IMG/VR virus record: IMGVR_UViG_3300045988_000095
Span: 1 to 5,710 of that record
Source: a virus
Reading direction: 5' to 3' (one strand)
Length of the DNA: 5,710 nucleotides
Shown: positions 1,133 to 1,193 of the stretch, piece after piece
How the letters are laid out: each line of letters starts with the position of its first letter
Numbering within the stretch: position 1 is the first letter of the stretch
Notes under the pieces: model-generated
The model's database searches: none
Seen by the model: the letters and a program-made list of their open reading frames with translations, nothing else
What the model was told of the DNA's origin: nothing
Made by a program: the position numbers and the translations under genes

Positions 1133-1193
1133 CAAGGGGTTGACCGCTCGCGGTCAACCCCTTGCGACAGCGCCCCATTCATGGGGCTGTCGC
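1133..1193 (+). other. Two adjacent GC-rich hairpins; candidate ssDNA structural element (complementary-strand origin or Rep recognition).
   Basis: Hairpin A has a perfect 14-bp stem, CAAGGGGTTGACCG (1133..1146) with CGGTCAACCCCTTG (1151..1164), and a CTCG loop. Hairpin B pairs CGACAGC..CCCC (1165..1176) with GGGGCTGTCG (1183..1192). It has a 2-nt bulge and an ATTCAT loop. By hand count 1141..1200 is 38/60 G+C, against 13/60 for 1381..1440. Confidence 0.6.

Follow-up and report, generated by a model that had tools for sequence, protein, structure and literature searches.

The DNA element considered here lies at positions 1133–1193 of a viral sequence of 5,710 nucleotides (nt) (IMG/VR record IMGVR_UViG_3300045988_000095, positions 1 to 5,710; this whole stretch is referred to as the window) and consists of two abutting GC-rich hairpins, here called the twin hairpin. 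The window is a complete or near-complete genome of a gokushovirus-type microvirus in which all recognisable genes are on the plus strand, and its nearest GenBank records are gut and faecal Microviridae with approximately 84–85% identity. The twin hairpin is located in the single long non-coding region of this genome (1014–1563, 550 nt), between the Rep/VP4 gene (12–1013, plus strand, PF23343) and a gene for an M15 peptidase (1564–1950, plus strand, PF08291, E = 9e-24). A preliminary description of the locus, made from the sequence alone, had presented the island as a candidate origin structure for single-stranded DNA (ssDNA).

Hairpin 1 (1133–1164) has a perfect stem of 14 base pairs (bp) with arms at 1133–1146 and 1151–1164 and the loop CTCG at 1147–1150. 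Hairpin 2 (1164–1193) has 12 bp with a 2-nt bulge on the 5' side; it can alternatively be drawn with a lower stem of 5 bp and an upper stem of 6 bp, separated by the internal loop AGC/T. In the minimum-energy fold hairpin 1 has 13 bp, as G1164 goes to hairpin 2. The DNA fold of the segment 1125–1200 has an energy of −27.8 kcal/mol compared to −10.2 ± 2.2 kcal/mol in 200 dinucleotide shuffles (z = −8.1), none of which folded as well, and the minus strand is equally foldable (−47.1 kcal/mol for 1015–1215, z = −9.7). Folding with DNA parameters had been proposed in the preliminary description, and it bears out the two abutting hairpins described there, the first with a 14-bp stem and a tetraloop and the second with a bulge, as stable structures on both strands. 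The G+C contents counted by hand in that description (38 of 60 for 1141–1200 and 13 of 60 for 1381–1440) are exact, and the island is indeed free of open reading frames (ORFs), with none of at least 40 amino acids over 1133–1193. The hairpins are followed by the tail TATCGATAG on the plus strand and by TTGATTAAC on the minus strand; written as a single oligonucleotide, the cassette is 5'-ATAGCGACAGCCCCATGAATGGGGCGCTGTCGCAAGGGGTTGACCGCGAGCGGTCAACCCCTTG-3'.

Comparison with close relatives shows that the island is an optional cassette and not a conserved core origin. The relatives comprise 80 viral contigs with Rep 80–98% identical to that of the window, in 73 of which the interval is intact. 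The twin hairpin is carried by 22 of these 73 and is cleanly missing from the remaining 51. At Rep identities of at least 90%, 9 relatives have the twin hairpin and 11 do not, and among six aligned GenBank relatives it is present in two and cleanly absent from four. Those four keep the hairpin at 1025–1058 (see below), the CG/CA repeats at 1215–1259, the block ATTAACTTGTTGTAG.CGTAGTAGTAGAG and AT-rich TGTTGAAA-like repeats. The covariance model described below, applied to the parts of the genomes that were searched, found no second copy of the motif in genomes without the cassette.

The segment missing from the short-type relatives corresponds to window positions 1059–1213 (155 nt), a clean gap in alignment A1, and contains a T-rich stretch, a small hairpin (1069–1089), an A-rich stretch, and the twin hairpin with its 3' flank. 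In MG945781 the twin hairpin alone is left of this segment, via a deletion between the direct repeats TCTCTTCAGTT and TCTATTCAGTT. In the window an imperfect outer inverted repeat (1110–1123/1199–1212, 12 of 14 positions paired) encloses the twin hairpin in a T-shaped fold; this repeat is limited to window-type relatives, the more distant carriers having no 3' arm. The slot is empty in about 35 relatives, and in some others it holds unrelated GC-rich hairpin clusters, which may also lie just past the CG repeats. Four relatives (L062, L064–L066) have, in the slot of window 1059–1213, a different and larger island that is rich in GC, spans about 170 nt and contains three or four hairpins, and in its three-way junction GCGGCTGA/TCAGCCGC is replaced by GCAGCTGA/TCAGCTGC.

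The base of hairpin 1, AAGGGG/CCCCTT, is kept among the carriers and its distal stem is hypervariable, with at least 12 different stem sequences (for example TTGACCG, GAGAC, AAGAC, GAGACTAC, CTGAC, TAGGCC, GCGCA and CCGTTAAC). Since the length of hairpin 1 varies, its covariation was judged sequence by sequence. A screen of 78 unique upstream segments found two internal mismatches, both A·C or C·A, and no G·T pair, the arms being otherwise complementary. A structure selected as RNA would be expected to include G·U pairs, and their absence points to pairing that acts in DNA rather than RNA. Compensatory change in the stems, which the preliminary description had suggested looking for among related genomes, is thus found in both hairpins, hairpin 1 being re-paired in at least 12 versions and hairpin 2 covarying at three pairs (see below). 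The mismatches are too few for the comparison of G·T with A·C to be usable for telling which strand folds, and the fold energies of the strands cannot be compared cleanly either, since the motif strand is rich in C.

The CCCCTT motif and its carriers

The most widely conserved part of the element was first defined as a motif at 1156–1196 on the plus strand, composed of CCCCTT, which is supplied by the 3' arm of hairpin 1 (1158–1163), followed by hairpin 2 and then TA. In the motif, hairpin 2 is drawn with the lower stem GCGAC/GTCGC, the internal loop AGC/T, the upper stem GCCCC(A)/(T)GGGGC and the loop TTC. The consensus of 51 distinct sequences reads CCCCTT, a 5-bp stem, NNC, G followed by four to six C, a variable loop, four to six G followed by C, an unpaired T, the second arm of the 5-bp stem and usually a further T. 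A covariance model of the motif, R1, scores 57.4 bits on the window (E = 3e-9).

Three pairs of hairpin 2 covary in alignment A2, namely 9–42 (GC 31, CG 14), 12–39 (AU 20, CG 8, GC 3) and 22–31 (CG 32, AU 12, UA 6); the search pattern had fixed none of these three. The covariation score of hairpin 2 was matched in none of 500 shuffles. The unpaired bases of the motif are conserved to the same degree as the paired ones. When CCCCTT was left free in the pattern, 20 of 21 matches still had CCC(C)TT, and when the positions of the internal loop were left free, all credible matches retained the unpaired T and all but about three the C. Conservation of unpaired bases on a par with paired bases suggests that something reads them.

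The motif pattern matched 60 viral contigs, compared with no match in the same viral collection for a reversed pattern of identical composition, which rules out chance matches in GC-rich DNA. It also matched 78 metagenome contigs. The genomes of 185,579 bacterial species yielded 34 matches, about 17 of them with the full hairpin and 7 of them Rhodobacterales microvirus prophages, at no more than two per genome; a repetitive extragenic palindromic (REP)-like repeat or a miniature inverted-repeat transposable element of the host was rejected, as the motif is nearly missing from bacterial genomes. A BLAST search of 72,556 plasmids gave no convincing match to the motif (one weak partial match, E = 2), and a BLAST search of GenBank with the motif returned just three phage records. 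Searches of Rfam with the whole window and with the island alone gave nothing near threshold, the best score over the island being 22 bits against a threshold of 70 (asX1). Several known elements were also considered. The put antiterminator RNA of HK022 has two abutting stem-loops, and the best score of R1 over HK022 27600–30100 is 0.9 bits. A CRISPR repeat, a group II intron domain V, a ribozyme similar to that of hepatitis delta virus, an integron attC site, a tRNA minihelix and a topoisomerase IB site (CCCTT) were set aside by inspection, as the features that we take to define them, such as lengths, conserved bases and partner elements, are not present.

The carriers are mostly microviruses of several distant lineages, whose capsid proteins are 23–45% identical to that of the window or cannot be aligned with it. 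A second group consists of filamentous phages (Inoviridae) of Xanthomonas and Stenotrophomonas; one of these, L139, encodes Zot and Rep_trans, and Xf109 has a variant of the motif. A human-gut gokushovirus and an inovirus prophage can be aligned directly over the motif. The Xanthomonas and Stenotrophomonas inoviruses have a REP-like hairpin, GTAGGGGCGCTGCCCCTAC, directly 3' of a DUF3653 gene (L182 1205–1225 in Xf109 and L183 1205–1225 in phiSMA9). Reading of the sequences downstream of GTAGGGGCGCTGCCCCTAC places hairpin 2 immediately after it in L139 and 45 nt further on in Xf109, with no hairpin 2 in phiSMA9. The BLAST matches of phiSHP2, SMA6/7, PSH1, phiLf and Cf2 end before hairpin 2.

Elements that encode a TrwC relaxase and an integrase also carry the motif. 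In one of them (L270 4565–5647; also L271) an inverted pair of motifs surrounds a non-coding region of 1 kb with two 57-nt direct repeats, a layout that resembles an origin, and the same relaxase element has a restriction-modification pair of the BglII type. A few GC-rich contigs with a portal gene (the tailed-phage contigs) have the motif in a divergent intergenic region of about 1.6 kb upstream of a large gene, which is probably the large terminase. Pfam and PHROGs gave no annotation for most of the motif-adjacent genes in the large GC-rich contigs. One GC-rich metagenome contig of 8.7 kb (L197) contains four copies of the motif on the same strand, at 624–672, 5340–5380, 5486–5529 and 6611–6656.

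Microviruses, inoviruses and relaxase elements have in common that they need the host for the conversion of ssDNA to double-stranded DNA, and a motif common to Microviridae, Inoviridae and relaxase elements would point to a shared host factor.

Orientation relative to the putative nick site

The hairpin at 1025–1058 is the putative site at which Rep nicks the DNA. Its arms are at 1025–1036 and 1047–1058 and its loop at 1037–1046, and in the minus-strand sense the loop has the sequence CTACTTGATA, with GGTGACAC following; the nick would be expected between 1040 and 1039. This hairpin shows no variation in alignment A1, and the same holds for 76 of 80 Rep-related loci. The viral-strand origin of phiX174 is annotated within CAACTTG|ATA, and three cultured gokushoviruses also have hairpins with ACTTG in the loop. 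Chp2 has one on the coding strand with the loop TCTACTTGAT and a 14-bp stem followed by GGTGATA, and phiMH2K and SpV4 have strong ACTTG-loop hairpins on the coding strand with CTACTTGTTG and TTACTTGTTA, respectively, in the loops. The coding strand is the packaged strand in Microviridae.

In the clade of the window the ACTTG-loop hairpin is on the strand opposite to the genes in all genomes examined (more than 30). The motif is in sense orientation to the genes in only two clades of gut gokushoviruses, one of which is that of the window; in the other, the hairpin is likewise opposite to the genes in the three members where it was found (KX513864, L114 and L125). In at least eight other microvirus lineages the motif is antisense, and those in which the hairpin was found (L127/L132, L101, L109, L176, L141 and L146) have it on the coding strand. 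Among metagenome loci, all 25 of 25 ACTTG-loop hairpins with a stem of at least 8 bp and within about 200 nt of the motif are on the strand opposite to the motif. The strand of the motif therefore follows the nick hairpin even where the hairpin is inverted, and its orientation is tied to the putative site of nicking, not to the direction of transcription. In the inoviruses the motif is antisense to Zot and Rep, so that its reverse complement is on the viral strand, which is known there from the polarity of the genes. We infer from these sequences that the reverse complement of the motif is in every case on the strand that Rep would nick and displace and that would be packaged.

Should ACTTG|ATA be the nick site, the minus strand of the window would be the single-stranded one in its clade, and by this analogy the displaced single strand is probably the minus strand. 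The preliminary description had treated the plus strand as the single strand that folds; with the nick-sequence hairpin on the minus strand, it is the minus strand that is probably single-stranded. By the same analogy the clade may package its non-coding strand, or at the minimum may have an origin inverted relative to the genes. Base composition agrees weakly with packaging of the minus strand. The coding strand of the window is rich in A and poor in T (AT skew +0.33), and the two genomes sampled from the other clade with a sense motif, L114 and L099, have skews of +0.34 and +0.37; T is in excess on the viral strands of phiX174, L127 and L134, with skews of −0.13 to −0.24, and phiMH2K is an exception (+0.29). 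If the inverted nick hairpin is read correctly, a whole clade of human and animal gut gokushoviruses may have its genes on the non-packaged strand, which would change the annotation of these genomes and the reading of their mutational biases. As metagenomic assemblies are without strand information, the motif could also help to mark the viral strand in them.

On the minus strand of the window the cassette lies 75 nt 5' of the nick hairpin, and would thus be among the last DNA displaced in each round. In most lineages the motif is located 75–160 nt upstream of the nick hairpin. Short repeats are found in the vicinity of both elements. In the low-GC microvirus L134 five tandem copies of AGCTATCATC (5520–5570) stand directly upstream of the motif, and in the window's clade similar CTATCAAGT/CTATTCAGT repeats adjoin the nick hairpin; both sets may be Rep-binding iterons.

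Possible functions of the cassette

These observations lead us to propose, tentatively and with somewhat less than an even chance of being right, that the twin hairpin is an auxiliary and exchangeable single-strand initiation signal, comparable to the single-strand origin (sso) cassettes of rolling-circle plasmids. The functional form would be 5'-GCGAC-A-GCCCC-loop-GGGGC-GCT-GTCGC-AAGGGG-hairpin 1'-3' on the strand nicked, displaced and packaged by Rep. [quoted passage not shown] The role of the cassette would be auxiliary and possibly specific to the host, alongside core elements kept by every relative, for which the CG/CA repeats are a candidate, and the cassette would spread by horizontal exchange, being gained and lost as a module. 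As regards the candidate ssDNA origin of the preliminary description, the structure, the pairing at the DNA level and the orientation relative to the nick hairpin speak for such a role, and what does not hold is a conserved core origin, given the 51 of 73 close relatives that do without the island.

The sso of rolling-circle plasmids are non-coding, folded elements that act in ssDNA in a strand-specific manner; they can be dispensed with, pass between replicons as cassettes and often lie just 5' of the nick site, where they are displaced last. The twin hairpin resembles ssoA and ssoU in being non-coding, folded and modular and in its position 5' of the putative nick hairpin. It also shares the orientation rule of ssoA, the motif being always opposite to the ACTTG-loop hairpin in the metagenome loci and in the microvirus lineages compared, and opposite to the viral strand in the inoviruses. 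However, it is much shorter (about 60 nt), its distance from the nick site is not constant, and the plasmid collection contains no convincing match. The signatures of ssoA, RSB and the CS-6 hexamer in a terminal loop, were not identified; TAGCGA is present on the minus strand at 1195–1190 and in about half of the aligned members, located at the base of hairpin 2 and not in a loop.

The preliminary description had pointed to G4, phiX174 and the filamentous phages as precedents, and the island shows no clear fit to these by sequence or by model, R1 finding nothing in G4, phiX174 or M13. The likenesses are more general. The complementary-strand origin of phiX174, a PriA site in the F–G region, also belongs to a member of the Microviridae and also consists of adjacent non-coding hairpins on the viral strand; it overlaps the terminator T_F, and a second short hairpin lies just downstream (bioRxiv 10.64898/2026.07.25.740675). 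The phiX174 hairpin is, however, AT-rich and on the coding strand. The window and phiX174 share the 10-mer GGGGTTGACC (window 1136–1145; phiX174 2347–2356 in L196, beside the PriA-binding hairpin) with a chance probability of about 0.01, in the variable part of hairpin 1, and this 10-mer is missing from most members of the family. In the primase origin of G4, as here, a short single-stranded tract that is conserved (CTACTG in G4 and AAGGGG here) comes immediately after a GC-rich viral-strand hairpin; G4 has three hairpins (I–III) compared to two here, with its primer start at CTG just 3' of hairpin I. There is no CTG at the G4-type primer-start position on the inferred viral strand, where the tract is AAGGGG. 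Primase trinucleotide preference differs between bacteria, and the hosts of the motif carriers span several phyla. The minus-strand origin of the Ff phages (M13/f1), whose hairpins mimic a promoter for RNA polymerase, likewise has two hairpins side by side in the non-coding DNA of an ssDNA phage, but the twin hairpin is far smaller and has no conserved mimic of −35 and −10 elements (TTGACC occurs in some hairpin-1 variants alone), and no promoter-like site was found in or beside 1133–1193.

Two further comparisons concern particular groups of carriers. Paired single-strand initiation sites flank the origins of RSF1010 (ssiA and ssiB) and of ColE1-type plasmids (paired n' sites), and the copies on opposite strands in L270 and L271 similarly flank a repeat-bearing non-coding region; those plasmid sites are recognised by a primase that the plasmid encodes, whereas the phages that bear the motif encode none. 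Hairpin 1 of the Xanthomonadales inoviruses, GTAGGGGCGCTGCCCCTAC, has the GTAG...CTAC ends typical of REP and SMAG palindromes; in contrast, hairpin 2 and both hairpins of the window have no GTAG head, and the motif is not repeated in chromosomes.

A number of observations weigh against an initiation signal. No recognisable primase, PriA or promoter signal was found in the element, and the failure of R1 to match G4, phiX174 or M13 counts in the same direction. Because the twin hairpin is missing from 51 of 73 close relatives and no second copy was seen, it cannot be an essential complementary-strand origin. The distance from the nick hairpin varies: in the KX513864/L114 clade the motif is about 80–140 nt downstream of it, and L106/L109 have the two about 2 kb apart. 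The assignment of the viral strand in the window's clade is based on sequence analogy alone. The copies in tailed-phage contigs are unaccounted for by a rationale built on ssDNA phages, a role in ssDNA being not obvious there. Finally, perfect palindromes in ssDNA can also persist by templated mutation without selection, and wobble-free stems are also the expected product of templated correction of quasi-palindromes. A more far-reaching claim, that the CCCCTT-hairpin is a new and widely shared class of initiation signal with which ssDNA phages of two families and conjugative elements recruit a conserved host priming factor across phyla, and that the window's clade comprises the first negative-sense Microviridae, is in our view doubtful.

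Templated correction is central to the first alternative, in which the twin hairpin is a selfish or neutral palindromic cassette that is spread by illegitimate recombination or template switching, has its pairing maintained by quasi-palindrome correction and brings no benefit to the phage. This would explain stems that are almost purely Watson–Crick, deletions between short direct repeats, the patchy presence among near-identical genomes, the occupation of the slot by other unrelated GC-rich inserts in other relatives, and a 67-nt block that occurs in three inovirus contexts with both flanks different. It does not explain why the unpaired CCCCTT and the C and T of the internal loop are strongly conserved in phages that differ widely in G+C content and in host, or why the orientation relative to the nick hairpin is fixed. 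The junctions show no target-site duplication or terminal repeats, and the near absence of the motif from bacterial chromosomes makes a host transposase an unlikely mover. We regard a neutral cassette as unlikely on balance.

The fixed orientation could instead reflect an accessory of the viral-strand origin, which as a cruciform in the supercoiled replicative form, or as a fold in the displaced strand, would aid nicking by Rep, termination of the round or the hand-over to packaging. Pairing at the DNA level, a distance of 75–160 nt to the putative nick hairpin (most microvirus lineages) and a strand locked to that hairpin are what such an accessory would show. The motif is, however, shared by elements with unrelated initiators (VP4 of microviruses, Rep_trans of inoviruses and the TrwC relaxase), it lies between convergent genes and away from the Rep gene in Xf109 and L139, its distance from the nick hairpin in L106/L109 is large, and most close relatives replicate without the twin hairpin, which together make this role quite improbable.

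The element could also act in RNA, as a transcription terminator or as a stabiliser of the 3' end of the last mRNA of an operon. In the window it is downstream of the operon's last gene, as it is, in reverse-complement form, in many other microviruses; in Xf109 and L139 the motif starts a few nucleotides past the stop codon of the repressor-side operon, between convergent genes. A hairpin can do both jobs, as in phiX174, where the complementary-strand origin overlaps T_F (bioRxiv 10.64898/2026.07.25.740675). On the other hand, neither hairpin is followed by a run of T, and a terminator scan of 950–1620 found none. The transcript has the motif in the window's clade and its reverse complement in most lineages, so the orientation in RNA is not conserved; no G·U pairs occur in spite of wide variation of the stems, and in the tailed-phage contigs the motif is upstream of the terminase operon and not after a gene. 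Overall, we give little credence to a function in RNA. A site for integration or other site-specific recombination (att or dif-like) is highly improbable: the motif lies about 150 nt from a dif-like junction in the Rhodobacterales microvirus prophages and several carriers encode or adjoin integrases, but the junctions are ordinary dif-like sequences separate from the motif (PMC11980548), no motif copy turned up at the boundary of a prophage, there is no conservation of the loop that would have to serve as crossover spacer, and a dif-like core with up to 3 mismatches to the E. coli sequence is absent from the window.

The results provide three handles on the conversion of gokushovirus ssDNA to the replicative form, namely a 40-nt motif with a covariance model, a predicted active strand, and natural genomes that have or lack the cassette while sharing more than 90% identity in Rep. 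The window and IMGVR_UViG_3300045988_001351 (L030) are an example of a natural pair of which one member has the cassette and the other does not. Gokushoviruses are the commonest microviruses in gut and environmental viromes. Within the literature that we searched on gokushovirus origins, stem-loops and nick sites, we found nothing on the motif or on an inverted origin, and both appear to be undescribed there. Two conserved hairpins with compensatory changes have been reported between the capsid and Rep genes of very small microviruses, with a role in negative-strand synthesis left open (PMC9865509), and a study of enterobacterial gokushoviruses does not discuss origins or hairpins (PMC7062461).

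Other elements of the genome

The non-coding region contains further conserved elements downstream of the twin hairpin. Two copies of the alternating purine-pyrimidine repeat CGCACGCACATGCGCGCGCGT (1215–1259), with potential to form Z-DNA and hairpins, are present in every relative, with or without the twin hairpin, and are therefore a candidate core element of the region. They are followed by a conserved block, ATTAACTTGTTGTAGCCGTAGTAGTAGAG, at 1266–1294 and by a conserved AT-rich, iteron-like block of TGTTGAAA/TGTTAAAA/GTGGAAAA repeats at 1298–1460. In KX513864 (L184 860–1000) and MG945388 the AT-rich block is inverted relative to the genes and the other modules, which indicates that it probably acts as duplex DNA. 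Some copies of TGTTGAAA and GTGGAAAA fit what we take to be a relaxed DnaA-box consensus.

The remaining recognisable genes of the window, all on the plus strand, encode VP5 (2428–2667), the scaffold protein VP3 (2486–3058) and the major capsid protein VP1 (3045–4718, PF02305, E = 3e-138). A further plus-strand ORF (4757–5644) has no Pfam match; it aligns with the relatives by tblastn, and related GenBank records annotate the region as VP2. A sigma-70-like promoter, TTGACA-17-TAAAAT (1515–1543, plus strand, 11 of 12 matches), stands 5' of the M15 peptidase gene, and in some relatives a different 5' module is found in place of this gene.

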